Both the position numbers and the translations under genes were made by a program. Below are positions 4,826 through 64,000 of a stretch of 64,000 nucleotides of DNA, one piece after another. Below the pieces are notes generated by a model. The model was not told the origin of the DNA, made no database searches, and saw nothing but the letters and a program-made list of their open reading frames with translations. The DNA is from Pristiophorus japonicus (Eukaryota): assembly GCF_044704955.1 (NCBI RefSeq), contig NC_091994.1, positions 47,554,001 to 47,618,000 of the forward strand. Direction: 5' to 3'. Each line of letters opens with the position of its first letter. Position 1 is the stretch's first letter.

Positions 4826-4930
4826 GTAAGTACAGACACTGAACTCTGCTCCTTCCGCAGCAGCACATGGGGCGCTTGGGGTCACTTTTAAAGAGTCAAT
4901 GTGTAATGTTTAATCCCTGCTCTTTTACAG

Positions 4931-5257
4931 GTGGACAGTCTCAGACTCTGACTCAGCCGCCAGCCCTGACCGTGAAACCAGGGGACACGGCCACACTCGA
5001 CTGTAACATTGGAACGGATGATGGCTATTATGTCAACTGGTACAAGCAGACACCAGGAGCAGTTCCTCAATGGATCCTCTATTACCATCACTCTCTCAGT
5101 GCCCCAACCTATGGTTCGGGGTTTACCAGCGACCGTTTCACATCGAAAGCCAACAGCGGCCACAACATTTACCAGTTAATCATAAAGTCCGTGGAGGTGA
5201 ATGACGCTGCCGTCTATTACTGTGAAAAATGGTTTTCAGCAAGCAGTGCTTATGTGT
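4931..5257 (+). CDS. IgL cluster 1 V exon, sigma-type light chain (sigma or sigma-2)
   Basis: QTLTQPP...LDCNIG...WYKQTPG...YYHHSLSAPTYGSGFTSDRF...DAAVYYC; the long CDR2 and YGSGF motif are typical of sigma-type V. Confidence 0.95.
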
Positions 5258-5285
5258 CACAGTGACAGAAGGTAACACAAAAACT
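5258..5285 (+). other. 12-RSS of V1
   Basis: CACAGTG, 12-nt spacer, ACAAAAACT. Confidence 0.97.
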
Positions 5286-11050: not shown

Positions 11051-12963
11051 CTAGTGTCTTTTTCAGAAAGATAGCACCACTAATAATGCATTACTGTACT
11101 TGTGAGTACTGCACTGAAATGTTGGCTGAGACATAGTCCATATATTTCTCCTTCCCAATTAGACTGCTCACGATCGGTCGGTCTGGATCTGTTTATTACC
11201 ATAGATGATGCCGAGTGTTCATTATTCTGTCATTCTTACCCATCCCCAATATTCTGATTTGAATTATGATGCGTTGCGCTTTAATTCACATTTGTCTGCA
11301 CCGATTTCATCCTGATCATCAATTTCCCAACAGTTACTCCCTCCCTGCGCCAGTTGAGGTACTCAACACTGCATTTTGAGTCAGTTCAGAGATGCTGAAC
11401 CCAATCCAATTCTCTACCCCCATACTCTCAGACACTATACCCCATCCAACACCCTACACTCTCTCAATTTCTCACAGTTCATGCTGGAATTCCCCTTCTG
11501 ACTCTCATCCAAAAAAGCACTGCTCCCAGCCTCTACTCCCTTCCCTCTTCCCTTCATAGCCATCCATTTCCCTCGGCACTGCTCCTTTTGAGTCCTGTTG
11601 CTAAATGATTCTGGTTGCTGCACATTAAGGCTGGAGCTGGGTACAAGTTCTGGGTACAATTTCCGCCCCCCCACTGCCGGTGGGGTGTGGGGACCATAAT
11701 CTATCTGTAGCTGGACTCCAGTCAGACCGACATTGCTGTGAAAAGGCTGGATGGTTTGTGCTGATGTTTGGCATTGACCGCTAACACCCGGACTGGGCCC
11801 ACACCACTGGCTCACTGAATTCTGTCGTTTGCCGTGTCGACACTGAGCCTGTGCCGGTGGGTTAGTGTTGCTGCATCGTGAACATCTCCGGCTGCCCCAC
11901 ATCAGCACTTGTACATTTTCCTTTTTTGTTTAAACAAAACACTTTGCAACTTCCTATTTCTGACCATGTACACTTGGATATTGAGGATCGTACCTCCCAT
12001 TCCCTCAGGCTCCTGTCCATGGGAGTTGTGAGCCAGCCCCATCTTGCCCTAAATGACCATTCTTCATAGATTGGCCGGGACAGTGAGTGTTAGTGGATCA
12101 TTCACCTGTCAATGGCCTTGTCTTGTCCTCGCCTCACACCCACAACAGCGCACCTTCCCAGTTGGGGAGTGGCAGGTGGGAAAAGGGGACGTTGCCGTTT
12201 TGTTCCCCTCTCCCAACCTCTGGATAATGTGCCAATTGGAGCAACATCGCTGCCCATGGACCGACTGGTCTGTGGAGCTCGGGACCACACAGTACCCTTA
12301 CCCACTGGCACAGGGGAGGGTTTGAGATCTTTTTATCCTTCCTGTGGCAGTGGGTGGCACCGCAGGGGCATTAGTGATGGGTGGGAAGGGGTGAATTGTA
12401 GAGGTGGAATGTGCAGCCGGTAGGACAGGGTGTGGGCACATTACACGGGTATGGTACCACTTTACACTGGCAGTGTGTCTCCAAGTCCTTTAATGGCTCA
12501 GTGCCAAAACACATCACTCTTTTTGGGGCAGATTTTTAACTTGAAATCCAAGGTTGCAGAGGTCACTGGTTTATGGTCAGAGTGGGATCCAGGATCACTC
12601 CTCTCCCTAACCAGGGATACTGGGGCCAAGTGAAGGGTCCCTGGTGCACTCGCCCTAGATCAGCTAACTTGGCACAGACCGGGAATGGATCCTGGGAGCA
12701 GGAGGTGAGGTCCCAGAGCGAGTGATGCTCTAATCCACCCAGTCACCAGGAGGATCCGAAAACAATAATTGTACATCAAGAAATCGTAGTCCTTTGTTTT
12801 GATAAACCATGTTCAACCTTAAAGGGGCAATGCACTCACTGTGAACGTCTGGGGCCCACTTTCGGAAGATTCAACCATTAAAATCTGCTTCGCTTAAACT
12901 CTGACATATGTTAAACATTTCAATAACTTTATTCAAACACTTCTTCTCTGGTTCCTATTGCAG

Positions 12964-13286
12964 CTCAGCAACTCCCTGAACCTTCACTAAAAGTGCTCGG
13001 GCCTTCGGCCGAGGAGATGAGCGCTAAAGGAGCAGGCACGTTAGTTTGCCTGGTCAGCAAACTGTCCATGGGCTTCGCTGCGGTCAGCTGGACAGTCGAT
13101 GGGAGTCCGACGAGCAGTGAGGTCCAAACCAGCGCGGTGTCGCGGAACACGGACAACACCTTCAGTCTCAGCAGCTACCTGATGGTCCCCGGCACAGACT
13201 GGAGCAGTGGGAAGGTGTACTCCTGTACAGTTCAACAAGGGACAGCTTCGAAAACATCCGCTACAGTCGCACAATCCGACTGTTAA
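12964..13286 (+). CDS. IgL cluster 1 C exon
   Basis: ttgcag acceptor in phase with J; AQQLPEPSLKVLGPSAEE...TLVCLV...SW...YSC...QSDC-stop with the C-terminal Cys. Confidence 0.96.
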
Positions 13287-14700: not shown

Positions 14701-16199
14701 ACCTGCAAAAAAAGTCTAAATTAATTCCACGGACTGATTAGTCAGAGGAAATTGCAGCAGATCTGACCACCATCTTTCAAAGATCCTTGGATATGGAAGT
14801 TGGGTCAGATCTGTGGAGGGATGCCACTGTAACACATTGTTTTTAAGGAATGAACTAGCTAACAGTAAACCAGTCAGATTAACAGCAGCAATGGTATTCT
14901 AGAGGCCACAATAGAGGATCAATTAATACTCACCTGGAGACATGGGCTCTAAGAAGAGCAAGCAAGGTTTCACATGTGGCATTTAATAGAACTCCCTTTT
15001 GAGAGGCTATTGATGAATGAAATGCAGCAGATGTTGTATATATGTATAATAACTTGAGTTTTGTTACTGTAAACGGCCTTGGGTGTAAACCTGATCCAAC
15101 TTTATTCACGCTCAAAGTACCCATGTGACATAGTACCCACTTTTATAGACCAGTGACCGTGCGCAAGCCTGTACAGCCCGATGACCTGTGACAGTGGTGC
15201 CCGCTGGTGTCTGGTGACCCCAAGCATCAATACATAATGTTCTCTTTCAAGACCTTAATATCAGTCTCTTTACAAATTAAGATGGTCTGGGATTTTCCTC
15301 TCATGAGTTGATCGTCTCAGTTCAACTTTAGTTCTAGGCGAGCATTCTGAGTCAGTTGTGACTGAAGGCTGAGTAACCGATCTGATGGGAGTGGTAATGA
15401 CCACATCAGAGGCTGAAGGTCCAGGTTCAGTAATGACAGCAAAGTCCTTTGATGAATGAACATTGGTTGGTTGGTTGGTCACTGCCTGCATATTCCTCAA
15501 ATGGTTCCAGTTCATCTGTGTGCCATGGTCTTACCTGATCAACATGTTTCCTGCATGTTTGCCCATTCTCAATCATAGCTGTAGATGTACTGGATGACAT
15601 AATACTATACTCTATCCATTTTGAATATGCATCCAACACAACAAAAAACATTTTGCCCATGAAAGGGCCCACAAAATCGATGTGGATCCTCGACCATGGT
15701 TTAGATGGCCACGACCAAAGACTCAGCGGGCTTCCGCTGGTACTTTTCGTAGCTGCATGCAAGTATTGCACTGATTCACACATTCCAGATCAGAGTCAAT
15801 TCCAGGCCACCATACATAAGACCGAGCAATGGCTTTCATCAGGACAATACCGGGATGAGTGCTATGTACTTCACGTACAAATTTTTCTCTACTTTTCTTA
15901 GGCATAATGACTTGATTACCCAACAGTAAACAATCTGACTGACTGGACAGCTCATCTTTGTGATGGTTGTAAGGTTTGGTTTCATCACACATCTCCATAG
16001 GTATTGCAGACCAATGACTACTGAGGACACAACGTTTCACAACCGATAAAATAGGGTCATGGCTGGTCCAGCTCCTAACTTGTTGAGCAGTGACAGGAGT
16101 TCCTTCACTCTCAAAAGCATCCATTAATAACAGTAGATCTGCAGGTTGAGGCGTCTCCATATCAGGTGTGGGCAAAGGCAGACGACTCAGTGCACCGAC

Positions 16200-17371
16200 T
16201 GCAGGGGAGGACGAAAACCCACTCATTTTACCCAGAAGGAAAAGGGCTGTGGGATCGGTCTGTGCTGTGAATTGAAACCAAGACGGTTTGACCTTGGCAG
16301 AGCAGTGATTGGACGGGGGAGGACACCGGACGGCCAATGGTGGGACAGAGTCAGCCCGAAGCATGCGGCTTTCAAGCCAATGGGAGAGCACTTGAAAACT
16401 GTGGGACTCACAGCCATTATCGGGCTATTGTCTTCCCCATGTTTACATTATGGAAGGAAATTATGCAGTCCTTCAGAAAACTAGGGAACCCAAAACAAAC
16501 CAAAGGCCTACACAATGGCTACAGGAGGCCAACCCAATTAACACCTACTCAAACCTTGAGTAGGTTAACATCAGTGGAAAAAAACCCGCAATAATCTAAA
16601 ACGGCTGCATTTTCAAAATCACAAAGCCCACCAATGGGAAGAATCGATTTCAGCAGGAGAGGCGGACTGGATAATCTGGCTATAAAAAGTGGTTTCTGAC
16701 GTAGTGTGGGTGGTTCCCTGCTCTCGTGATCCAACAACCAGCAAGCCTCTCGACACTGAAGGAAAACCAGTGTCCGAAGACACCGAAGATAGAAGAAACA
16801 AACCACCAGACTTGCAGAAGGCACAGTAGTGAATATAACCTCTGGTCCCTGGAACTCCCAACTCAGTTAGGCCAGGAAAGGTGGGAGGTTGGGCAGTGTA
16901 CTGCTAAACTTGTGTAAAGATTTTCATTGTGTCTGTTTAGTGGGATTTAGGGGGATTGTTTTGTTGGTGTATTGCTGTTTGTTGAGATACACCTTGTCAA
17001 ATAAATTGGAAGCCTAAGTTCCTCTTGGAATCACCTTGTCTCAGTTCTATTGTATTACATCTCCTGATCGTGAGTCTTATGTCAGAACAGTGTAAGGGAA
17101 GCTAGAAGCGCCTCGAAAATGCTCAACTGTGTGTCACAGGCTAGGGAAGAAGGGGTTAGGAGTGTTTGACACTCACAGGTGCCTCACAGGCTAGGCATAA
17201 GCTGTGGGGATGCACGAGTCTCAAAACCCCCTTCATAAGCTGTGGACACAGTATCTCCAGGGGTGCTCTTGCAGCACTCAGGGTACCTCACAGGCCAAGC
17301 ATAAGCTGTGAGGGCAGAAGCCCAGAGAGAGACACCCAAGGCACAACAACACTCCCTGAGAACCCCTTACA
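16200..17371 (+). repeat. ERV 5' LTR
   Basis: TG...CA ends (tgcagggg...ccccttaca), TATAAAA at 16681, AATAAA at 17000; near-identical to 25481-26741 and 62114-63413. Confidence 0.9.
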
Positions 17372-17450
17372 GAACATGGTGATCGCCGCAGGACATAAGC
17401 AAACAGGAGATGTTAATATAACAGATGAGGTAATAAGAGAGGAAACTAAA

Positions 17451-19256
17451 ATGGAGGAGAGAATTTCCTCATACATTTTTGGCAAGGTGAACCTCACCAA
17501 ACCTTGGGTGCAAGCCCTCACACGGGCAGAGCGCCCAGTGGATGCTGCTGCTCAGTGGACAGCAGGGAAGGACCACAACCACAAGGTGGAAAAGGCCATC
17601 TGGCTTATCTGCTTCACCCGCCAAGTCCGAAAGCTCGACCAGCGGGTGAAGGACTTGGAACAGAGTCTTCAGAAATCAGAGGAGCTCTCTGCTATCCGGG
17701 CTGCGGTTGGGGACAACCTGCTGGCCGAATTAGCTGTGGAGCAGCAAGGGAAGAGGCAGTTGGAGGAGACCTTCCGAAATAGCCGGGACTATCTTCAGTG
17801 TCAGGTCACTGAGGCCAAGGGTAGTGAGGGGTCCCTCCGGGAACAGAACTCTCGGTACACCCAGAAAATTTGGGAATGAGAGAATAAATTAAAAGGAGTA
17901 CAGGCAGCCTATAAAGTGGCCAGTAGCAGTGAGTTTGCAGATCACGGTCCCTGCCAGGAGAGGATTAAAACTCTCACCCATGCTCTATCCCAGGCAAAGG
18001 GGATGGATGCCCTGATAGGACCCGGAGGGTCCACAGGGGACAAAGGAGAGTATTGGGGGGTAGAGGAGAATCCAAAGGCAAGAGACGCCCGACCACCTCC
18101 TGAGGCACCGGTGGTTTGTCCGGTGGGGTACCAGGAGGAGCGGGGCTCGCAGATAGTAGCATACCCAGGGCTGGGGGCAGGACCAATGTGTCCCGCTCGG
18201 CAGCAAGGATGTGAGGCTCCCGCCGAGGGTCAGTTAAGGGCTGGATCAGGCGACCACGCACTGTCTGCTGCAACGGGTATGGTGGGACAGCCGGAGGTAG
18301 AGGGGCCAGCGCAGAAAGATCCTGAACCAGGGTGGATGTGCCCGGTCAGGCAGCGCAAGTACTGTCCTCCACAGGGAGGTGGCCAAGGTCAGGGAGCGCT
18401 GGAGAGCGACTTTATTATTCCCCATGGAGTTCAATCACTCAGGCCCATTTGGCCAAACTCACTCGCAGCGGGGACCCGTCTATCCACTTCATGGAGGTGA
18501 TGCAGGCAGGGGAAATTAATGGGTGCGACGAGGAAGAGGCAGCCAAGCTGCTGCTCTTCTCTCTGGACACCAAATTGTACCAGGCCCTACCAGCAGAATG
18601 CCGGAGGGGGCAGCGTACATTTACTGAGGTCCAGAGGGCCGTCCTTGAGGCTATGGGCTTCAATGACCCAGTCCTTTCGAACGGGTCGAAAGGACAAGGC
18701 AGCTCGCAGGGGAAACCCCGCAGGCGTTTGCGGACAGGCTGTGGGTGGTATACGACTCAGCCTGTGGGGAGCTCCTCGACCGGGCGAATCTTTCCGCGGT
18801 ACAGACTGGCCGCTGGCTGAGGATGCTCAAGGCCAGGGCAGAACTGTGGTTCGATTCCCGGGACCCAACCTCACCGAGGAAGCACTGGTCAGGCAACTGG
18901 CACTGGTCCAACAGAATGGAGGAGGGGAGGAGAAGAAAACCTCCAAAGGTCGGGTAAATGAAGTAAAACCCAACTCGATTCCCCAAAAGGGAATGGCACC
19001 AGGAGGGTGGCCGCTTGATTGATAAGGAGGGAGTGTGCTATGGGTGTGGGAAAGCTGGGCATTTTAAAAGGGATTGCAGGAGCCCAGTAAAGAGATATGG
19101 GGGGAGAAGTCCTTTAGGAGCCGCCCAGAGTGGGGGAAGTGGAGCGAGCTCCTCACGATCCTTGACGAGATAGTAGCTGCAGTGAGGACAGCGCTAGAGG
19201 GGACTGGGAAGGTAGCCACGGCAACAGGCAGGGAAGCACCAGCAACCCTGCCGTGA
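17451..19256 (+). pseudogene. gag: Gag-like polyprotein (N-terminal coiled coil, C-terminal CCHC knuckle CYGCGKAGHFKRDC at 19036-19077); stop at 17877 and frameshifts
   Basis: Joined ORF fragments 17166, 17916, 18332, 18745, 18519 and 19074. Confidence 0.85.
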
Positions 19257-22200
19257 CTAGCCCAGACCCAGCCTGTATACCTGTGCCCACTAGAATACGA
19301 CCCCTGGGGACGACACTGGGTCAAGATGGAGGTTGAGGGTATATTGGGTACTTACGTTTTGGACACTGGTGCTTCCAGCACGATAGTCCATTCGGAGGAC
19401 CCCGCAACCTCACCTCTATCAAACGGGGTGCCGTATCAACTAGTTGGGTTGACAGGAAATAAGAAGGCTGGGTTTTTCTCAGTCCCGCTCGCAGTTCGTT
19501 TAGGAGCATTCCAAACACAATGGAAGTGCGTCCTGATGAACTGGGAGCAGGTGGGAAAAGGGATCTTGGGGGCTGATTTCATCATTGCTCGCCAGATCCT
19601 AGTAGACTTGAGGAATCACTGTCTATGGGGCATAGTGGGCACGGGAGCAGAGGGAGAAGTCATGTTTATTGATAAGAAACAGGGAAAAGGGACTCTGTGT
19701 ACAATGAAGCCAAAAGGTGGCTACGACCTGGAGGTTCTGGTTGGTAACACGCCGGCCGAGTCTATGCCGTGCCGTGCCGTGCAGCATTTGCCACCCATAA
19801 ACACGATTGTGGGAGAGTCACAGGAGTGGAGGTTAGAATAGATGGGGATCCCATGTCCCGCCCGCAAAAGCAGTATGGCTTTCCCCGAGAGGCAGAAGCA
19901 GACTTGGAGACAGCTTTAAGCTCACTTGTCGAGCAGGGTGTTTTGAGACCCATAGCCACCCATGTCAACTCCCCGCTTTGGCCGGTTAGGAAACCGGACA
20001 ATTCTTGGAGGGCTACGGTGGATTATAGGTTGCTCAATAAAAACATCCCAGCTTGTGCTCCCACAGTAGCGGCGGTTGCGGATCTGATAGGGGAAATCCC
20101 TGCATCCGCAACCACGCTCACAGTGTTGGACATATCCAACGGGTTCTGGTCTATCCCTGTATGGAGGGAAGACCAGTACAAGTTTGCCTTCACCTTCCGG
20201 GAACAGCAGTATACATGGAGCTGCCTCCCACAGGGCTTTCATAATAGTCCCAGCATCTTTCACCAATGCATGGTGAACTGCTTAAAAGGCTTCAGCCAAC
20301 CACACCAGCTGGTCCAGTATGTGGACGACCTGTTGTTGTTCACAGACAGCAGTGAGGAACACGGTCCACTGCTGGCCGAACTGCTGGTCTTACTGAAGGA
20401 AGGGGGTTTTAAAGTTAACCCCAAGAAAGCCCAGATAGGTCTAGGAGAGGTAAAATTACTGGGCCTGACGATAAGGGAAGGAGAAAGGGCCATTGATGAG
20501 GCTAGAAGAAAGGCAGTGCAGGAACTCCCTGTTCCGAGGGATGTGTTGGGAGTAAGGTCTTTCCTGGGAATCACTAGCTACTGTAGGGACTTCATCGAGG
20601 ACTATGCAGCCACTGCCGCCCCTCTGCTCAGACTCCTACATAAGGGGGTCGAGTGGGAATGGGACGAGGGCTGTGAGGCAGCATTTGTCCGTCTTAAGAG
20701 AGACCTGCAGGTAGCACCAGCCCTCGGGGCAATTGATGGGGGGGAGGAATTCTTCCTGGAGGTGGCAGCCAGTGGCGACAGCTTAAGTGCAGTGTTGCTC
20801 CAGGAGCGAAACGGTCAGCTGAGACCAGTGGTGTACTCCTCCAGGGTCCTCACGGAGGTAGAAAAGGGATATTCCAATTGTGAGAGGCACTTGCTTGCCA
20901 CCCACTGGGCAGTAGAGAGAGCTCAGATCTTTACCGGAATATCCCCCATTACACTCCTCACCCATCATACCCCGACGCAGATGCTGTTGGACGGGAGGAT
21001 TAAGGACGGGACAGTGAGCAGTGCTAGAATCACTCGCTGGACCCTCCTCCTCTCTCAAATGACTTTAAAGGTCAAGGGCCTCTGCGAGCCCAGGCTCGCA
21101 GCAAATTTAATCTATCCAGGGCAGCCGCATTGATGCTCTGTGGAGGGGGTATGGGACATCAACTTTAGATTTCGTGCAGGGATACACCCCACAGGCCGCG
21201 AGATCTACGTTGATGGCTCCAGTTCAGTGTCCGCGGGTACAAGACTCATGGGCTGCGGAGTTTGGGATCCCAAGGCAGGGATTGCCTTGGCTCTTAAACT
21301 CCCATGCACCCTGAGCGCCCAGCAGGCGGAACTCTCGGCGGTGATGTATGTGGTCACACACCCCGAGGAATTCCCTACCCCATACACGATTTGCTCGGAC
21401 AGCATGTTCACTTGCAATTCGTGTACAGCATATCTGGCGATTTGGTCATGCCGGGGGTACACCTGTGCGGATGGGAAGCCCCTTGTGACCAAACCCCTGC
21501 TAGAAAAGATTGTGGCTGCAGTGGGAGAAACCGGGGATGTATATATCCATAAGGTAAAGGCCCACTCCAAAACTGAGCCACGGGGGGAAGGTAACCAGCA
21601 GGCAGACCTGCTGGCAAGTGAAGGTGCTCGTTCAGGTCGCCCATGGGACCCATACAAGGCAGGCAGGATAGCAGCAGCAAGAAGCAAGCCAGGGACACAA
21701 GGGAGCGTAGGGGCGGCTGCGGCCTCGGACCTTAAAGTAGTCCAGATGCAGGATCCGGTCCTGAAGGCTGCCTTGGCTGCTATCAAAAAGAGGGAAAAGG
21801 CGGAGGGCCCATACAGTGCTGCAGATATTGCTGTGCGGGAAGGCATGTTGTTTAAAGGGGACAAATGGGTAGTGCCGCCACAACATCGGAGGGAATTCCT
21901 TCAGCTGGCCCATGAGGGTCCAGGTGCTGGAAATCTGGGCCGGAATCTACCTGGCAACAGATAGAAAAGGCAGGGTGGTGGCCAGGCCTCCGGGAAGATG
22001 TCCGCAACTTCTGTGCGGGCTGTCTGGTTTGCGCTGCAAACAACCCAGACCCTCAGAAAAGGAAGGTGTCTATGGGACACGTCAGGCGGGTAGAGGGACC
22101 GTGGCAGTCGATCCAGATCGACTACATCGGACCCCTACCGGCCGCCCAGGGAGGTTATAAATACTGCCTCGTCCTGGTGGGTTTTCCAAGTGGGTGGAAG

Positions 22201-23015
22201 CCTTCCCTTGCTGAACAGCTACCGCGGTGGGGACTGCAAAAATCCTGGTGAGGGAGGTGTTCTCTCGGTGGGGTCTACCTCAAATCGTGGAGTCCGACCG
22301 GGGAAGCCAATTCACCGGCCAGGTGATGCAGGTCACCCTAAAGGTACTGGGGATAGGAACCAAATGGTATGTTGCCTACAATCCTCAGTCCTCAGGCCCC
22401 GTAGAACGCCTGAACCGGACCCTAAAGGAAAGGCTGCGCAAGGAGACGGGAGACTCAACGAACAAGTGGGTGGAGGTCTTACCGTTGGTCCTCATGGGAA
22501 TCCGGGCCAGTCAGTCAAAGAGCACAGGGTACTCACCCCATGAGCTGAGGACGGGCCGGATCATGAGAACCCCAGTGCATGTATTGGCGCCGGTTCTCAC
22601 CGAAGGGCAGCTTCGAGAGGTGAACCGGGACCGCTTCGTCAGGAATCTGTTTGAACAGCTTCAACAGATTCACTGGCAGGCGGCCAACAACATGGGTAAA
22701 CAGCACCGTGCCAATCGGCTGCTGCTGGAACCCCGCAGTCACCATGATTGGGAGGTGGGCGACCAGGTGATGGTGAGAAGCTTCGCCCGGGTCGGGGTAT
22801 TTGAACCACTGTATATGGGACCATACAGCATAGTCGACAAGGCTAGCCCTATGGTCTATGCGGTTCAATTGCCTCGCCGGGTGAAGTGGTATCACATTCA
22901 TCAGTGTAAATTGTTTGTCCCCAAAAGAGATAAAAAACAGAGGGGACGAGCAAGGGAAGGGAATCAGGCACTGGGGGAAGAACAGGCCCCGGTGGATTTG
23001 GAGGCTCCGCAGTAG
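19257..23015 (+). pseudogene. pol: Pro-Pol: protease (LDTGA), RT (YVDDLL), tether, RNase H (YVDGS/SAQQAEL/SDS/KVKAH/GNQQAD), integrase (IDYIGPLP, SDRGSQF, PQSSGPVER)
   Basis: ORFs 19326, 19769, 21140, 22066 and 22227, linked by frameshifts and a stop at 21131. Confidence 0.95.
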
Positions 23016-23704
23016 GCAGCGGGCCCCGAAGCTCTACAGCCGGGGCTGGTTCATTGCTCCAGTAAGGCTATCCCACCATTGGGTAGAGGTTCCCAGCCCA
23101 CTAACAGAAGTAGGGAGAAAGGCTCTACCATTAGCAAGGTCCAAGGGGAAGCTGAACCTCCCATGGTGGATCAGCTGGGGCTAGCCCAAGAGGTGGAGGA
23201 GATAGCATTGCAGCCCATAATGTGGGACTCTGCACTGACAGTAAGGAGGAGTAACAGAGTGCCACAGCCCAGGGCGCCGTGGTCCCCTGTTTACTTAGCT
23301 CCCCGCCCCAGACCGAGAAGGCGAAAGACAACAGGGAGGGTGCTCTGTTGCGCTAGCAAGGGTCTCCCACCGATTATCCGGGGCTCGGGAGGGCCTTGGA
23401 GGGCAGCACCAGATCCATTAAGGGGGACTAAACGAGCCCCTCAGCGGAGGGCATCCTCGTCCCCAGGGTACGGTCAGCCGAGTGGTCAACGACCCCTGTA
23501 CAGTGACAGGATGTAGCCTGGCCACCCGGGGACCGGTGGCGGTGTATATATTTTCCCTTTCTGTTTTGTTACTTTGTGTTGTGTGCAGATGTGTTTAGGT
23601 AAGGCAGTGACGGTTGGGTACAGCATTTTATGTTCGGAACATGTTACGCGGGCCGAGCCTGGAGAGGTCTCTCAAGGCAAGGCCATGTTCTTCTGGCCTT
23701 TCGG

Positions 23705-25101
23705 ATGTCAACACCTCCCGACTGGACGTTAGTGATGCTGTTATCGCTAAGGATCTGCACCGGGCACCGAGGGGACACCGAGGACTCCCTGGTTTTCGGA
23801 TGCTCTGGGGGCAAAGCGCCGACAGTGACCACAGGAGAAGGGACTCCGGGGGCAGATGGCCGGGTCACCTACTCCCACGAGGGGAGATGGCCTGGGTGGT
23901 TGGAATCGAATTCCACCAAGTACTCCAACCATAAGGACTTTACCTACGGAGAGGCCTCCATCCCCTTCCCGGAGGTCACTGTGGCCACTTCCAGAGTGAG
24001 AGTGACAGAAGGCAGGAAGGTATGCCTAACTTGCCAAGGGGACATACCTCTGGGACGGTGGTGGTGGCTCAGGAAGCTCAAGAGGGACGTGGGAGACCGA
24101 TACTCGGACTGGGAACGTCTGGATAATGATACCTACCGAACCATCATGGGGTCATCTGGCGGGGTCACGGTGTGCTGGGAGAAATGGTGGGCGTATGACC
24201 AAGGAATTTATTTGTGTATGTGGGGATCCACTCGCGTGTGTTCAGAGGGGGTCTCCATTGCTTTCTATAGGTGTTGGTCAGGATACCCGTGATGGGGGCG
24301 TCCCCACGACCAGCACCTCTGTACCGAGTGGAGAATGTGGGAGTCATTCGTGGAGGGGTGCATGTTCGATTCCAAGAGGTCCCACCTTATGTCACAATGT
24401 GGGAGCACACTGTGACAGGTACAGACCTCTCGGGATGTCGGAGCAGGGGAGCACAGGTAATCCTGTGCCCCCAACACTTGAACGCTTTTGCAAGGCCACA
24501 ATGCAGAGCCTATCAATTGCACAGTGGAGGTAATGGCCCCTAACAACATGCCTCCACAGGAGCATATGTAGGCGGTGGGACATATTGTGTCACCACAAGT
24601 GCCCAACGGTATGAACACGGACCGGGAAGGTGGTGTCCAATACCGTACAGCAGCTTTTGCTTTAAACCCAGGGCAGAGGTTCAAGTGGCACACACTAGAA
24701 TCACACCCATCCCTGAACCTTCCACGATTCACCTCACGGTACAAAACAACCTCAGCTACCTACAGCAATATGTCGCCCATTTTGGCTATCCCATTGCCCC
24801 ACAACCTGAGAAACTTACAGCCCTCCTCCAGGCAGTGGATTTGTCTCAAAAACATTTTTACACCATGAAGCAGAAAACTGAAATTCTAGCAGGGGAGATT
24901 GTCCAGATTAAACCCCCAGCATGGTGGGATTTGGGGATACGGGCAGACATAGCTGCGTGGATCCGGGTGGGATCGCATGCCTTAGTATTCGGCCAACTCC
25001 TGATTGTAGCATATCTGCTAGTTACAAGCTGTAAGCTCAGGAGAAAAAGAAAAAGAAAGCAGTTCCTCAGGCTACTAAACAGACAGGAGAGCCATTGCTA
25101 A
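23705..25101 (+). pseudogene. env: Env-like glycoprotein: signal peptide, Ig-like domain, Cys-rich ectodomain, TM and basic tail; frameshifted
   Basis: WTLVMLLSLRIC; VTEGRKVCLTC...W...DQGIYLC; DLSGC...ILCP; HALVFGQLLIVAYLLV followed by RRKRKRK; lies between IN and the 3' LTR. Confidence 0.8.
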
Positions 25102-25480
25102 ACACTCAAGGCGTGTAAACAAAGCTTGACCGCGACACTTAGACGGTTTTTGTTATTCCCAGGGATGACTGCGTTTTCATACATGGCCCCTGGAGAGTTT
25201 GCAGGGCAGGTTTCTTTGTTTTACGGTTAAGACTGAAATGAGACTCAATGTACAATTACTGCTGTAACCTTAAGTACATATATGTATATTGCTGTCGATA
25301 ATTGTAACCTGTTGGAATCTGTGTTTTGCACCACGTTAAAAGGAATTACGATATATATCGACGGGATCAGTTTAGAGTTAAACTGGGGAAAGTTAGGCAA
25401 TTTGGGAGACCTAGGGTTTTCTCAACACCCTGAACTTTGACACACTTGAGTGGTGTCTGACTGTGTCAGATGGGGGATTA

Positions 25481-26741
25481 TGTCGGGGAGGAAGGAAAAG
25501 GGCTGTGGGATCGGTCTGTGCTGTGAATTGAAACCAAGACGGTTTGACCTTGGCAGAGCAGTGATTGGACGGGGGAGGACACCGGAGGGCCAATGGTGGG
25601 ACAGAGTCAGCCCAAAGCACGGGGCTTTCAAGCCAATGGGAGAGCACTTGCTCGAAAACTGTGGGACTCATAGCCATTATCGGGCTATTGTCTTCCCCAT
25701 GTTTACACTATGGAAGGAAATTATGCAGACCTTCAGAAAACTAGGGAACCCAAAACAAACCAAGGGCCTACACAATGGTTACAGGAGGCCAACCCAATCA
25801 ACCCCTACTCAAACCTTGAGTAGGTTAGAAAAACTGAATTGGAGGAAAATTATGCAGACGTTCAGAAACCAGGGAACCCAAAACAACCCAAGGGCCTACA
25901 AAATGGCTACAGGAGGCCAACGCAATCAGCACACACTCAAAACTTGAGTAGGTTAACATCAGTGGAAAAAACCCGCAATAATCTAAAACTGCTGCATTTT
26001 TCAAAATCACAAAGCCCACCAATGGGAAGAATCGATTTCAGCAGGAGAGGCGGACTAGATAATCTGGCTATAAAAAGTGGTTTCTGATGTAGTGTGGGTG
26101 GTTCCCTGCTCTCGTGATCCAACAACCAGCAAGCCTCTCGACACTGAAGGAAAACCAGTGTCCGAAGACACCGAAGATAGAAGAAACAAACCACCAGACT
26201 TGCAGAAGGCACAGTAGTGAGTATAACCTCTGGTCCCCGGAACTCCCAACTCAGTTAGGTCAGGAAAGGTGGGAGGTTGGGCATTGTACTGCTGAACTTG
26301 TGTAAAGATTTTCGTTGTGTCCGTTTAGTGGGATTTAGGGGGATTGTTTTGTTGGTGTATTGCTGTTTGTTGAGATATACCTTGTCAAATAAATTGGAAG
26401 CCTAAGTTCCTCTTGGAATCACCTTGTCTCAGTTCTATTGTATTACATCTCCTGATCGTGAGTCTTATGTCAGAACAGTGTAAGGGAAGCTAGGAGCGCC
26501 TCGAAAACGCTCAACTGTGTGTCACAGGCTAGGGAAGAAGGAGTTAGGAGTGTTTGACACTCACAGGTGCCTCACAGGCTAGGCCCATAAGCTGTGGGGA
26601 CGCACGCGTCTCAAAACCCCCTTCATAAGCTGTGGACACAGTCTCTCCAGGGGTGCTCTTGCAGCACTCAGGGTACCTCACAGGCCAGGCATAAGCTGTG
26701 AGGGCAAAAGCCCAGAGAGAGACACCCAAGGCACAACAACA
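25481..26741 (+). repeat. ERV 3' LTR (last ~20 nt deleted)
   Basis: Begins TGTCGGGGAG after the purine tract; identity to the 5' LTR stops at gcacaacaaca. Confidence 0.9.
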
Positions 26742-29700
26742 GATGATGTCAACGCCCATCTCTGGATACGGGATGATGCATTGGTATTAATACCTTTGTT
26801 TTCCGAAAACAAAGAAATGAGTGGCTTGTGATCCGTTTCGATCTCAAAATGAAGACCAAACAGGTACTGATGCATCTTTTTGACCCCATACCCACAGGCC
26901 AAAGCTTCTTTTTCTACCATGCTGTAAGCTCTTTCCGCCTTTGACAAACTTCTCGAAGCATACGCAACAGGTTGTCGCTTACCCGACTCATTTGCTTGTT
27001 GGAGTACACATCCAACCCCATATGATGAAGCAGCACAGGCCAATACAAGATGCTTACACGGATCATAATGAACAAGCAACTTGTTTGAACAGAGCAGATT
27101 CTTAGCTTTCTCAAAGGCTCTATCTTGAGATACATCCCAGACCCAGATGTTGCCTTTTCTGAGTAGCATATGTAGTGGCTCTAATAAAGTGCTCAATTTG
27201 GGTAAGAAATCACCGAAGTAGTTGAGTAGCCCAAGGAATGAACGCAGCTCTGTCACATTCTGAGGCCTGGGTGCATTTTTGATGGCCTTAGTTTTCAAAT
27301 CAGCAGGCCTGATGTCATCAGCAGCAATCTTCCTCCCCAGGAATTCAACTTCAGATACCATGAAGACATACTTCGAACATTTCAGCCTGAGTCCCACTTT
27401 GTCCAGACAATGTAGGACTTCTTCAAGATTGTTCAGATGTTCAGCAATGTCACGACCTGTGACCAGAATGTCATTTTGAAACACGACAGTTCTAGGAACA
27501 GACTTCAGTAGACTCTGCATATTCCTCTGAAATATGGCTGCAGCTGAACGAATTCCAATAGAACACCTGTTGTAGACAAACAGTCCTTTATGGGTGTTGA
27601 TGCAGGTGAGTTTCTTCGAAGTGCCGACAAGCTCCTGTGTCATATAGGCCGATGTCAGATCTAGTTTAGTGAACGACCTGCCACCAGCTAGCATGGCGAA
27701 CAGGTCATCAGCCTTCCGGTAACGGATACTGATCCTGTTTCGAAAATCAGTTATTCGTAACCTTGTAGTCACCACAAATCCTGACAGTGACATCAATCTT
27801 CAACACAGTAACAATGGGACTGGCACACTCGTTAAACTCGACCGGTGATATGATCCCTTCTCGTTGGAGTCTGCCAAGCTCAATTTTAACCTTCTCCCTC
27901 ATCATGCAAGGAACAGACCAAGCTTTATGATAGACAGGCTTTGCATCAGAATCTAGGTGAACCTGCACCTTGGCTCCAAGAAAATTACCAATGCCCGGTT
28001 CAAACAAAGAAGGAAACTTCTTCAACACTTGAGCACATGAAGTGTCATCCATCGAGGACAATCATTCCAGTTCCACTTGATTTTCTCAAGCCAATTCCTA
28101 CTGAACTGCGTTCGGATAAACACCTGGGATGATCCATAATGGTAGATCATGAACCACACCATCATATGACACCTTGACTACTATACTGCCAATCACCGGT
28201 ATGAGTTTCTTAGTCTAAGTACGCAACTTGGCATTGACTGGACTCAGCTTAGGCTTCACAGCCTCAGTGTCCCACAGCTTGTTGAATGCCCTTTGGCTCA
28301 TTACCGACTGACTCACACCTGTCAGCTTCACATTAACGATTATTGGCTGGCTCTTTCCCAAGAACGAATACAGACCATACACTTCCTCACCGGCTTGTGT
28401 ATCCGGGCCAGCACTGGACTGATCATCATCAAAAATGTGATGAGTGGCAACACGGTTGTTCAGTTGTGGGCACATTCTCTGAAGATGCCCCACTTTTGAA
28501 CAGCCATTACAGGCGGTATTGTTTAAACCGACACTGATGAGGCCGATGATTGCCCCCACAATGCCAACAGGGTGAAATCAGATTCGTACCAGTTGGCGGA
28601 CTCTGAGCAGCTATAGGTTTCACATAAGCAGTCGAGTAGGCCTTGCCATGAGCAGGTCCGCCAGAAGACGACACAATCTTGTTTACAGTAGCTGTCGTGG
28701 AGCTCCGATTCTTCGTTGATATCTGCCTCAAGCTATCATCAGATATCATGCATGCCTGGGCAGTCGCGATGGCCTTTCTCAAATCCAGCTTCTCTTTGGC
28801 CAAAAGCTTCCGAAGAATCACATTATGGTTGATGCCTATCACGAAGAAATCTCGCAACATGTCTTCCAACACGTTCCCGAACTTACGCGGCTCAGCAAGA
28901 CGTCATAGGTCGGCGATGAATCCCGACACAGCCTGATCCTCAGCACAAACATGTGTATAGAAGCAATAGTGTGAGATGATGATCCCCTCTTTTGGCTTAC
29001 AAAATCCTCGAAGCATACGCAACAGGTTGTTGCTTACCCGACTCATTTCCTTGTTGGAGTACACATCCAACCCCATATGATGAAGCAGCACAGGCCAATA
29101 CAAGATGCTTCCATGGATCATAATGAACAAGCAACTTGTTTGAACAGAGCAGATTCTTAGCTTTCTCAAAGACTCATACTCTTTGTCCATTGGACGTAAA
29201 GGCGAGAGAAGATTCTTCATAAGGTTGTAAATTTTCGGATGACAAATGGTGAGGAAAACCGCCATGCGCCTAATTGCATCAGCCTCTCCCTCCATTTTGT
29301 TGGCCACAAAACACTGATCCAGGCGGTCGATAAAATCCGCTCAATCCTCGCTCTCCGCAAATCTCTCCAGAATTGCAGTAGTGCCCATTGTACATGCGAA
29401 GGTTCTTAAGTTACCTCGTCGCCAAATGTAATGTCTCAAGAGCCTTGTTACTGTAAACGGCCTCAGGCGTATTCCTGATCCAACTTTATTTGCGCTCAAA
29501 GTACTTGCGCGACATAGTACCCGCTCTTATATGTCAGTGACCGCGCACACGCGCGTACAGCCCGATGACCTCCGACAGTGGCGCCCCCTGGTGTCTGGTG
29601 ACCCCAAGCATCAATACATAACAATATGGAGTTTCAAAAAGGGGTTTGATAACTTGCAACATTAGAGGTTTGTTGATAAAACTAGAGGGAGTGTGGAATT

Positions 29701-50995: not shown

Positions 50996-51100
50996 GTAAG
51001 TACAGACACTGAACTCTGCTCCTCCCGCAGCAGCACATTGGGCGCTTGGGGTCACTTTTAAAGAGTCAATGTGTAATGTTTAATCCCTGCTCTTTTACAG

Positions 51101-51427
51101 GTGGACAGTCTCAGACTCTGACTCAGCCTCCAGCCCTGACCGTGAAACCAGGGGACACGGTCACACTCGACTGTAACATTGGAACGGTTGATAGCTATCC
51201 TGTCAACTGGTACAAGCAGACACCAGGAGCAGTTCCTCAATGGATCCTCTATTACCATCACTCTCACAGTGCCCCAACCTATGGTTCGGGGTTTACCAGC
51301 AACCGTTTCACATCGAAAGCCAACAGCGGCCACAACATTTACCAGTTAATCATAAAGTCCGTGGAGGTGAATGACGCTGCCGTCTATTACTGTGAAAAAT
51401 GGTTTTCAGCAAGCAGTGCTTATGTGT
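51101..51427 (+). CDS. IgL cluster 2 V exon, sigma-type
   Basis: Open frame with both Cys and the Trp intact; 6 aa differ from V1. Confidence 0.95.
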
Positions 51428-51455
51428 CACAGTGACAGAAGGTAACACAAAAACT
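51428..51455 (+). other. 12-RSS of V2
   Basis: CACAGTG-12-ACAAAAACT. Confidence 0.97.
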
Positions 51456-60984: not shown

Positions 60985-62113
60985 TATAATAACTCGAGTC
61001 TTGTTACTGTAAACGGCCTTGGGTGTAAACCTGATCCAACTTTATTCACGCTCAAAGTACCCGTGTGACATAGTACCCACTTTTATATACCAGTGACCGT
61101 GCGCAAGCCCGTACAGCCCGATGACCTGCGACAGTGGTGACCCCAAGCATCAATACATAACGTTCCCTTTCAAGACCTTAATATCAGTCTCATTACAAAT
61201 TAAGATGTTCTGGGATTTTCCTCTCACAAGTTGATCGTCTCAGTTCAACTTTAGTTCTAGGCGAGCGTTCTGAGTCAGTTGTGACTGAAGGCTGAGTAAC
61301 CGATCTGATGGGAGTGGTAATGACCACATCAGAGGCTGAAGGTCCAGGTTCAGTAATGACAGCAAAGTCCTTTGATGAATGAACATTGGTTGGTTGGTTG
61401 GCCACTGCCTGCATATTCCGCAAATGGTTCCAGTTCATCCGTGTGCCATGGTCTTACCTGATCAACATGTTTCCTGCATGTTTGCCCATTCTCAATCATA
61501 GCTGTAGATGTACTGGATGACATAATACTATACTCTATCCACTTTGAATATGCATCCAACACAACAAAAAACATTTTGCCCATGAAAGGGCCCACAAAAT
61601 CGATGTGGATCCTCGACCATGGTTTAGATGGCCACGACCAAAGACTCAGCGGGATTCCGCTGGTACTTTTTGTAGCTGCATGCAAGTATTGCACTGATTC
61701 ACACATTCCAGATCAGAGTCAATTCCAGGCCACCATACATGAGACCTAGCAATGGCTTTCATCAGGACAATACCGGGATGAGTGCTATGTACTTCACGTA
61801 CAAATTTTCCTCTATCTTTCTTAGGCATAATGACTTGATTACCCAACAGTAAACAATCTGACTGACTGGACAGCTCATCTGTGTGATGGTTGGTCTCATC
61901 ACACATCTCCATAGGTATTGCAGACCAATGACCACTGAGGACACAACATTTCACAATCGATAAAATAGGGTCATGGCTGGTCCAGCTCCTAACTTGTTGA
62001 GCAGTGACAGGAGTTCCTTCACTCTCAAAAGCATCCATTAATAACAGTAGATCTGCAGGTTGAAGCGTCTCCATATCAGGTGTGGGCAAAGGCAGACGAC
62101 TCAGTGCACCGGC
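60985..62113 (-). mobile_element. Gypsy A 3' LTR and integrase remnant, copy 2
   Basis: Paralog of 15045-16199. Confidence 0.9.
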
Positions 62114-64000
62114 TGTAGGGGAGGATGAAAACCGGTCATTTTACCAAGAAGGAAAAGGGTTGTGGGATCGGTCTGTGCTGTGAATTGAAACCAAGACGGT
62201 TTGACCTTGGCAGAGCAGTGATTGGACAGGGAAGGACACCGGAGGGCCAATGGTGGGACAGAGTCAGCCCGAAGCATGCGGCTTTCAATCCAATGGGAGA
62301 GCAGTTGCTTGAAAACTGTGGGACTCATAGCCATTATCGGGCTATTGTCTTCCCCATGTTTACATTATGGAAGTAAATTATGCAGTCCTTCAGAAAACTA
62401 GGGAACCCAAAACAAACCAAAGGCCTACACAATGGCTACAGGAGGCCAACCCAATTAACACCTACTCAAACCTTGAGTAGGTTAGAAAAACTGAATTGGA
62501 GGAAAATTATGCAGACCTTCAGAAACCAGGGAACCCAAAACAACCCAAGGGCCTACACAATGGCTACAGGAGGCCAGCACAATCAATACCCACTCAAACC
62601 TTGAGTAGGTTAACATCAGTGGAAAAAACCCGCAATAATCTAAAAGGGCTGCTTTTTCAAAATCACAAAGCCCACCAATGGGAAGAATCGATTTCAGCAG
62701 GAGAGGCGGACTGGATAATCTGGCTATAAAAAGTGGTTTCTGACGTATTGTGGGTAGTTCCCTGCTCTCATGATCCAACAACCAGCAAGCCTCTCGACAC
62801 TCAAGGAAAACCAGTGTCCGAAGACACCGAAGATAGAAGAAACAAACCACCAGACTGCAGAAGGCACAGTAGTGAGTATAACCTCTGGTCCCCGGAACTC
62901 CCAACTCAGTTAGGCCAGGAAAGGTGGGAGGTTGGGCATTGTACTGCTAAACTTGTGTAAAGATTTTTGTTGTGTCCGTTTAGTGGGATTTGGGGGATTG
63001 TTTTGTTGGTGTATTGCTGTTTGTTGAGATACACCTTGTCAAATAAATTGGAAGCCTAAGTTCCTCTTGGAATCACCTTGTCTCAGTTATATTGTATTAC
63101 ATCTCCTGATCGTGAGTCTTATGTCAGAACAGTGTAAGGGAAGCTAGGAGTGCCTCGAAAATGCTCAACTGTGTGTCACAGGCTCGGGAAGAAGGGGTTA
63201 GGAGTGTTTGACACTCACAGGTGCCTCACAGGCTAGGCATAAGCTGTGGGGATGCACGAGTCTCAAAACCCCCTTCATAAGCTGTGGACACAGTCTCTCC
63301 AGGGGTGCTCTTGCAGCACTCAGGGTCTCTCACAGGCCAGGCATAAGCTGTGAGGGCAGAAGCCCAGAGAGAGACACCCAAGGCACAACAACACTCGCTG
63401 AGAACCCCTTACAGAACATGGTGAACGCCGCAGGACATAAGCAAACAGGAGATGTTAATATAACAGATGAGGTGATAAGAGAGGAAACTAAAATGGAGGA
63501 GAGAATTTCCTCATACATTTTTGGCAAGGTGAACCTCACCAAACCTTGGGTGCAAGCCCTCACACGGGCAGAGCGCCCAGTGGATGCTTCTGCCCAGTGG
63601 ACAGCAGGGAAGGACCACAACTGCAGGGTGGAAAAGGCCATCTGGCTTATCTGCTTCACCCGCCAAGTCCGAAAGCTCGACCAGCGGGTGAAGGACTTGG
63701 AACAGAGTCTTCAGAAATCAGAGGAGCTCTCTGCTATCCGGGCTGCGGTTGGGGACAACCTGCTGGCCGAATTAGCTGTGGAGCAGCAAGGGAAGAGGCA
63801 GTTGGAGGAGACCTTCCGAAATAGCCGGGACTATCTTCAGTGTCAGGTCACTGAGGCCAAGGGTAGTGAGGGGTCCATCTGGGAACAGAACTCTCGGTAC
63901 ACCCAGAAAATTTGGGAACCAGAGAATAAATTAAAAGACGTACAGGCAGCCTATAAAGTGGCCAGTAGCAGTGAGTTTGCAGATGACGGTCCCTGCCAGG
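62114..64000 (+). mobile_element. ERV copy 2: 5' LTR (62114-63413), PBS-like site at 63419, gag open from 63493 to the window end
   Basis: Same insertion point in Gypsy A as 16200; LTR begins TGTAGGGG and ends CCCCTTACA. Confidence 0.92.

Follow-up and report, generated by a model that had tools for sequence, protein, structure and literature searches.

Structure of the locus

The window, by which we mean the whole 64,000-nt stretch of Pristiophorus japonicus DNA analysed here, contains a provirus on the + strand, an LTR element running from about 16200 to 26741. The 5' LTR (16200..17371, TG...CA; ends read by hand against the termini of other copies) is followed by a TGG that may begin the primer-binding site. 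The 3' LTR (25481..26741) stands after a purine-rich tract, lacks its last ~20 nt and is 95.8% identical to the 5' LTR over 904 nt. The gag region (17160..19022), assigned by position, consists of several broken frames and has no Pfam match. Downstream are an aspartyl protease frame (19257..19841; Pfam gag-asp_proteas E 7.8e-5 and RVP E 0.0016, below the cut-offs), a reverse transcriptase (RT) with its tether, the first RNase H-like domain (19748..21133; RVT_1 E 1.3e-31, RT_RNaseH_2 E 3.4e-20), a second RNase H (21134..21964; RNase_H E 2.6e-20), making the RNase H dual as in retroviruses, and a frameshifted integrase (21916..23015; Integrase_H2C2 E 1.8e-10, rve E 6.5e-6).

The env gene opens with a start codon and a signal-peptide-like stretch (23705..23764). 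The signal peptide was judged from the look of the sequence and from a helix at residues 6-18 in the structural model, and the ATG position is the same in 38 of 39 other copies. A conserved N-terminal segment (23765..23971; 48-72% identity to relatives) leads into the Ig-like domain (23972..24274), directly after which the window copy lacks 917 nt, counted by hand. The junction of this out-of-frame deletion, with the stop that results from it (24271..24292), lies between two short imperfect repeats. Beyond it, an env remnant from the C terminus (24284..25101), out of frame and broken at other points too, comprises a Cys-rich region, HR2, a transmembrane helix and a basic tail.

The provirus sits within a minus-strand Gypsy-like element (15427-16199 and 26742-29340), between what its translations indicate are the RT/RNase H and integrase parts. 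The window also holds a C exon at 12927-13286 and, at 4843-5262 and 51013-51432, V exons of light-chain type that carry a 12-spacer recombination signal. This V/C cluster lies in a ~46-kb tandem duplication. The provirus was duplicated along with the cluster, with the LTR found again at ~62100-63400 and env in L018/L060, indicating that it had inserted before the duplication took place.

The immunoglobulin-like domain

The open reading frame on the + strand runs from the ATG at 23705 to a stop at 24290-24292 and encodes 195 amino acids. It contains VTEGRKVCLTC at 24002-24034, which includes Cys110; RWWW at 24056-24067, whose Trp119-121 begin 9 residues past Cys110; and DQGIYLC at 24197-24217, ending in Cys171, which is 61 residues past Cys110. 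The B-strand Cys, the C-strand Trp, the DxGxYxC F-strand Cys and a Cys-Cys spacing within 55-75 residues, the features expected of the immunoglobulin superfamily (IgSF), are therefore all present, and every residue of the V/I-set hallmarks listed in the preliminary description was found in the frame. Less usual are three additional cysteines (Cys107, Cys157 and Cys179) and an E-F stretch that is rich in Trp and non-canonical. Of the bounds first proposed for the domain, 23970..24226, the end falls a little short, as structural alignments carry the domain to about residue 190 (nt ~24274). The pattern C-x(8,16)-W-x(35,65)-DxGxYxC has a single match across the window's six reading frames and none in any of 100 triplet-shuffled windows, although it was composed after viewing the sequence and genuine host V exons fail to match it.

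That the domain is unlike the neighbouring V and C exons, as had been claimed from the sequence, is borne out by comparison with the neighbouring V exon (BLASTP E 15, no likeness) and by a tblastn search of the domain against the whole window, in which the best other match had E 0.09 and none fell on the C exon. Local capture from the light-chain V/C exons is ruled out by these two comparisons.

Assignment to the Ig fold depends on several weak leads. The only relevant Pfam match for the head is Ig_3, at E 0.0019 (19.1 bits) with the whole frame and E 4.9e-4 (21.0 bits) with the domain alone, below the curated cut-off of 30; neither V-set nor I-set is listed for the domain at E<=10. In contrast, the host V exon in the window matches V-set at E 2.5e-16. 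All five matches at E<=10 in a search of PDB sequences are IgSF chains, the best being CRTAM (E 0.35). Profile searches of PDB gave no matches with the first alignment, and with the Ig alignment a best E of 0.034, to an unrelated position. In the Atlas, the ten best family matches of the head all belong to one clan (scores 0.92-0.94), the family-bearing rows sharing 156-161 features, under the guide value of 170. An AlphaFold model of the domain, built from 9 sequences, is all-beta with pLDDT 53, and in the full-length Env model most of the head has pLDDT <50. Among the 50 structural neighbours listed for the domain model, mostly IgSF chains by title, the best has Z 6.8 (rmsd 2.9, 86 residues aligned) and none reaches Z>=8, a range in which, by the structural-comparison tool's own warning, a match can mean a common arrangement. 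Foldseek gave no match for the Ig model at E<=1e-3 (best E 0.08).

Because the Pfam, PDB-sequence, Atlas and model leads agree, even though each by itself falls below its threshold and they overlap to some degree, we consider it probable that residues ~90-190 adopt an Ig fold. The structural and Pfam checks that had been suggested for the domain thus came out in part: the model is all-beta, as a beta-sandwich would require, and its nearest folds are of Ig type, whereas Foldseek and the Pfam models gave nothing above threshold.

Conservation of the head within the family

In the 5.9-Gb genome we found 2710 DNA candidates for members of this family, of which 40 were scored (95-100% identical), and 7184 protein candidates, of which 150 were scored; these candidate counts are not copy numbers. 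The head is not peculiar to the window copy. Among 29 copies picked with a downstream probe, that is, without reference to the domain, 25 carry it, so the segment is far from absent in other copies, and the remaining four have lost most of it by a shared deletion that also takes most of F2. This second deletion (L111, L119, L122 and L139) measures 639 nt by hand count and is in frame; the linker between the Ig head and F2 goes with it. In the first sample, all 40 copies keep Cys110, Gly167, Tyr169 and Cys171, with Asp165 kept in 39 and Trp120 in 36.

Four cross-species relatives span the domain, at 46-66% identity and with the same Cys/Trp pattern: two from the skate Rhinoraja (P0002 and P0007, 46-47%), one from a Pristiophorus sawshark (P0001, 64%) and a fourth at 66%. 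All four retain the Cys-Trp-DxGxYxC order and the 61-residue spacing. F2 is 67-80% identical to the same relatives, above the range for the Ig-like domain. The domain is conserved, though less strictly than the fusion core, a pattern that would fit an exposed binding domain.

For the N-terminal segment and Ig domain together, amino-acid changes are depleted among variants shared between copies (17N:19S) relative to private variants (78N:30S; p 0.008), in a test on 37 of the 40 copies after three near-duplicates were dropped. For the Ig domain alone, the difference between shared and private variants was not significant in either of two samples (p 0.29 and p 0.37), which overlap by at least one copy; all of these site counts ignore transition bias. 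The suggested test of whether other family members keep the domain in frame with dN/dS<1 gave a trend, short of significance, for the domain by itself. The observations on copies and relatives support the segment as a stable part of the family's Env.

A splice-acceptor pattern, narrowly defined, lies upstream of the ATG in only 5 of 40 copies, and we draw nothing from it. No RNA data set was listed as containing the family. Its sequences occur in four sequencing runs of unrecorded kind, two of which have contigs that continue into the undeleted form; this speaks neither for nor against expression. Gene models from Pristiophorus and Heterodontus (P0001, P0003 and P0039) join env pieces to host genes (zinc-finger, Niban-like, fbxo15) and are either chimeric transcripts or annotation artefacts.

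The full-length Env and its predicted F-type core

In 7 of 39 other copies a frame opens at the same ATG position and runs on unbroken for 777-786 codons, and in these seven the furin site, fusion peptide, HR1, HR2 and transmembrane helix lie in one frame, which is not the case in the window copy. The encoded Env has, in order, the signal-like peptide, a segment of ~65 residues, the Ig-like domain, a Pro/Thr linker and, from residue 239, a core made up of an F2-like part, an R-x-[KR]-R site (328-331), a hydrophobic helix followed by heptads, a Cys-rich region and a transmembrane helix. The long natural copy that we examined has this furin-type site, 8 sequons and a transmembrane helix at 730-758.

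A model of one natural copy has mean pLDDT 58.6, with 70-90 over much of the core. Foldseek matched it to 238 PDB chains at E<=1e-3, including the F proteins of RSV (E 3.3e-11) and hPIV3 (E 3.7e-11), with low TM-scores (0.2-0.3) and rmsd of 20-30 A for the F-type matches. Against a viral structure library, the matches included walleye epsilonretrovirus Env (9.6e-12), foamy Env (1.8e-4) and also baculovirus F. The Atlas assigned Fusion_gly at 0.91 with 199 shared features, and the Pfam Fusion_gly model gave no match to the long natural Env. From these comparisons, residues ~240-730 are predicted to have an F-type fold. The best matches to the F-type model include the predicted Envs of the walleye epsilonretroviruses WEHV1 and WDSV, which suggests that F-type Env may be wider among fish retroviruses than the loki and foamy viruses.

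Relationship to known retroviruses

The RT matches PDB sequences of retroviral Gag-Pol of MLV type best (199.6 bits), followed by foamy virus (184) and Ty3 (130). Its nearest named relatives are coelacanth proteins, and a search of viral contigs with it found no relative. The RT, RNase H and integrase were also compared by eye, without a tree, with rows from the part of the PMC7947760 supplement available to us. By hand count, the RT is identical to that of snakehead retrovirus (SnRV) at ~110/248 positions (~44%) and to Loki-Lch at ~92/248 (~37%). The RNase H motifs SAQxAEL, YLAxWxxRG, ADG and KVKAH are common to our family and SnRV in those rows. The SnRV clade and CmiERV lineage I of the elephant shark (PMC4422223, PMC4977317 and PMC12193657) are among the closest known systems, and the main ERVs of the coelacanth are SnRV-like. 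Pol looks SnRV-like by this hand comparison, made without a tree.

Our first identification of the family was as a lokiretrovirus, and we lowered it after the RT and RNase H rows had been compared, the CPFGY motif being absent and the RT closer to SnRV. There are likenesses to the lokiretroviruses of PMC7947760. Both Envs are F-type with a signal peptide, an RxKR site, a fusion peptide, a coiled coil and a transmembrane helix; both have a GP-x-G-x-x-L core start and dual RNase H; the integrase core is similar by eye, and the RT thumb is loki/Ty3-like. Neither dual RNase H nor F-type Env is unique to lokiretroviruses, however, as the walleye and foamy Envs match too. The differences are that RT motif B reads CPFGY in the lokiretroviruses and LPQGF in the shark family, and that an N-terminal head is missing from 10 of the 11 lokiretrovirus Envs shown, the other being a fragment, while the shark family's Env has ~215 extra residues. 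As to hosts, the abstract of that paper names no chondrichthyans, and the one table row at hand gives 0 of 3.

The head itself finds its closest published counterpart in a different type of Env. The available part of the Hotzel preprint (bioRxiv 10.1101/2024.03.17.585361) describes IgV-like receptor-binding domains (RBDs) at the N terminus of gamma-type Env, including one that was captured from SIRP. The gamma-type Envs whose RBD-C is IgV-like (MLV, FeLV, Env-Pb1) share with the shark Env an Ig-type N-terminal domain followed by a proline-rich linker, and the SIRP-like captured class has the canonical B-F disulfide, as the shark head would. Those RBDs, however, stand on a gamma-type SU/TM and have a recognisable donor, whereas the shark head stands on an F-type scaffold and its donor is not recognisable. 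For the core, the comparison is with the class Ib proteins of PMC11468914 (foamy Env, paramyxovirus and pneumovirus F, and coronavirus spike), which share the predicted F-type core. That paper treats F as a minimal scaffold to which receptor-binding modules are added, at the N terminus in spike and internally in foamy Env. In the spike the module is added N-terminally to the minimal scaffold, as in the shark Env; foamy Env differs in having an RBD of its own fold inserted inside SU, and the paramyxoviruses in having a separate attachment protein.

Retroviral Envs with an Ig-type head and retroviral Envs of F type have thus each been published already. The literature we searched, mostly outside the subscription journals and without the preprint supplements, describes no F-type or SnRV-like Env that bears an Ig domain; the main text of PMC7947760 contains neither "immunoglobulin" nor "shark", and the accessible parts of PMC12440569 and bioRxiv 10.1101/2023.10.26.564294 have nothing on Ig domains. 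The description of this Env architecture as unusual accordingly needs to be narrowed: N-terminal IgV RBDs as such are published for gamma-type Env, and the combination with an F-type Env is what appears new within the literature searched.

A variable slot between signal peptide and core

The position occupied by the head differs in content among related Envs. It is empty in 10 of the 11 lokiretrovirus Envs shown in the available part of PMC7947760, and in P0045, in all of which the signal peptide is followed directly by the F core; on this ground we regard the head as a module. In the related Envs P0010, P0024 and P0032 (Mustelus, Pristiophorus and Chiloscyllium) a Cys-rich head is found instead. 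P0031 has a V-set-like head in the same slot (V-set E 0.045), and a second shark family as well as an Env of the frog Pelodytes also have Ig-looking heads. Judged from these sequences, the slot between signal peptide and core is variable among related Envs. Relatives of the Env occur also in Xenopus and Scyliorhinus.

A common origin of the divergent heads was considered and found no support. HMM scores against P0013, L082, P0020 and P0031 were matched by 2, 29, 5 and 29 of 200 shuffles, respectively. HHalign probabilities were <2%, with the Cys-rich P0010 control as high, and other alignments covered only the F2 start. Both shark families do have a W-x-x-[WF]-W-x-x-[DHE]-x-G motif, the one sign in common, but it was chosen after the fact.

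Origin and proposed role of the head

Taking these results together, we favour with moderate confidence the reading that this high-copy shark-type ERV carries, at the front of its Env, a conserved and probably Ig-fold module that is likely a built-in cell-attachment domain for a predicted paramyxovirus F-type core. We propose an attachment role because, in the parts of PMC11468914 and bioRxiv 10.1101/2024.03.17.585361 available to us, the F scaffold takes N-terminal or internal modules and IgV-like RBDs stand at the N terminus of gamma-type Envs. Once furin has cut the protein, the Ig head would stay on the surface subunit, where it could bind a cell-surface protein, an IgSF partner being the likeliest. 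It would then supply the attachment step that is the work of a separate protein in paramyxoviruses and of an inserted domain in foamy viruses. Receptor binding is something we infer only from the head's position and from analogy. A weaker part of the proposal is that the module may derive from an IgSF gene of a host, acquired long ago, earlier than the separation of the sawshark and skate relatives. We are evenly divided on whether the head was captured from a host gene at all. No host donor was found among 46 relatives drawn from 1.84 billion proteins, nor at significant E in PDB, so the search for the closest IgSF donor, which the preliminary description had suggested, came back empty and capture is not shown.

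The empty donor search also fits a reading without host capture, in which the head is a beta-sandwich evolved by the virus, or a very old module handed from one virus to another, that serves in structure or shielding and resembles Ig by convergence. The sub-threshold scores, the Trp-rich E-F stretch and the extra cysteines all fit such an origin, and the available part of the Hotzel preprint (bioRxiv 10.1101/2024.03.17.585361) states that for the IgV RBD of MLV type, too, the origin in a host is unknown. We nevertheless think this unlikely, as the canonical residue order and the spacing hold in all four cross-species relatives and the head of P0031, in the same slot, is more canonically V-set-like.

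It may also be that the head acts as an immune-modulating decoy for an inhibitory receptor, a cytokine or Fc, with attachment left to the F core or to glycans. The nearest sequence leads, CRTAM among them, are immune IgSF proteins, and the headless Envs of P0045 and of the lokiretroviruses (as far as PMC7947760 was available) indicate that a head is dispensable for entry in some lineages. Those leads are not significant, however, no ligand motif or donor was identified, and the head occupies what the available parts of the literature give as the place of receptor-binding modules. A decoy function therefore seems to us rather improbable, and attachment remains the reading that we prefer.

The deletion in the window copy

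The 917 nt missing from the window copy would have encoded F2, the cleavage site, the fusion peptide and HR1, and the frame stops soon after the junction. The locus is an env with an Ig-like domain, as first described, but without ~0.9 kb of fusion core it is a dead deletion derivative that cannot be a working envelope; at most it could yield a secreted 195-residue head. The same junction is present in 19 of 40 copies collected with an Ig probe that spans it, a share inflated by that choice of probe, and in 1 of 29 copies in the second sample, collected with the downstream probe. Like the 639-nt deletion described above, it is now present at several loci, which it presumably reached with help in trans or through intracellular copying.

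Truncated Env proteins can serve hosts as restriction factors, Refrex-1 and suppressyn being examples, and we considered the possibility that the host has kept the window locus for a secreted protein, consisting of the signal peptide and Ig domain, that blocks a viral receptor. The deletion stops the frame right past the domain, and among the 19 deletion-type copies eight keep the exact 195-residue frame and three have a longer one. The other eight are broken before codon 195, however, and private variants in the deletion-type copies look neutral (Ig N/S ratio 0.80), so we see no sign of the host keeping a secreted head here. The position of the junction between short repeats is typical of a reverse-transcription slip, the tandem twin (L018) has an altered conserved Cys-containing motif, and the sample was chosen for likeness to the window copy. 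Host retention is, in our view, very unlikely. Least credible is a chance pattern in a decayed provirus: although no curated cut-off is reached, the motifs appear in none of the 100 shuffled windows, lie in frame in long natural ORFs and are conserved in shark and skate relatives, a conservation that refutes the chance reading.

A candidate co-opted env and wider implications

In the course of these comparisons, an Env of a second, older F-type family was found at L082:1851-4133 on the minus strand (G000:C18, about 30167350-30169632). Its frame of 761 residues is unbroken, whereas all 19 siblings fetched (86-92% identical) are frameshifted and 18 of the 19 have in-frame stops. Only an integrase remnant lies upstream. 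Its private changes number 5N:7S in the head, against 144:39 in the siblings (p 0.008), and 8:7 in the F part, against 431:161 (p 0.14), giving 13:14 against 575:200 combined (p 0.006). The head has no Pfam match; the protein is 42% identical to Chiloscyllium P0013, which bears the UniRef name "Ig-like domain-containing protein". L082 is a candidate co-opted env under apparent purifying selection, and its co-option is directly testable by orthology and expression.

It is tempting to join these observations. The N-terminal slot of shark and amphibian F-type Envs may be swappable in the manner of coronavirus S1, having been filled more than once with host-derived Ig domains (in the window family, in P0031 with its V-set-like head, in the second shark family and in the frog Env), or, in other sharks, with an unrelated Cys-rich domain, while elsewhere it stayed empty; and a shark may have co-opted L082, an F-type env with an Ig head of this kind. 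We offer this joint scheme as a tentative possibility that we would not ourselves expect to hold in full. If it were true, L082 would be an antiviral or syncytin-like gene, and the literature searched describes no case of such a gene for this class of fusogen and this host group.

For F-type fusogens that specify their receptor without a separate attachment protein, there have been two layouts so far, the S1 of the spike and the inserted RBD of foamy viruses. An Ig head on an F-type retroviral Env, if our reading is correct, would be a third, and would extend Ig-type RBDs from gamma-type Env to a structurally unrelated one. The head would also provide a small soluble domain with which to seek the first receptor of a cartilaginous-fish retrovirus.
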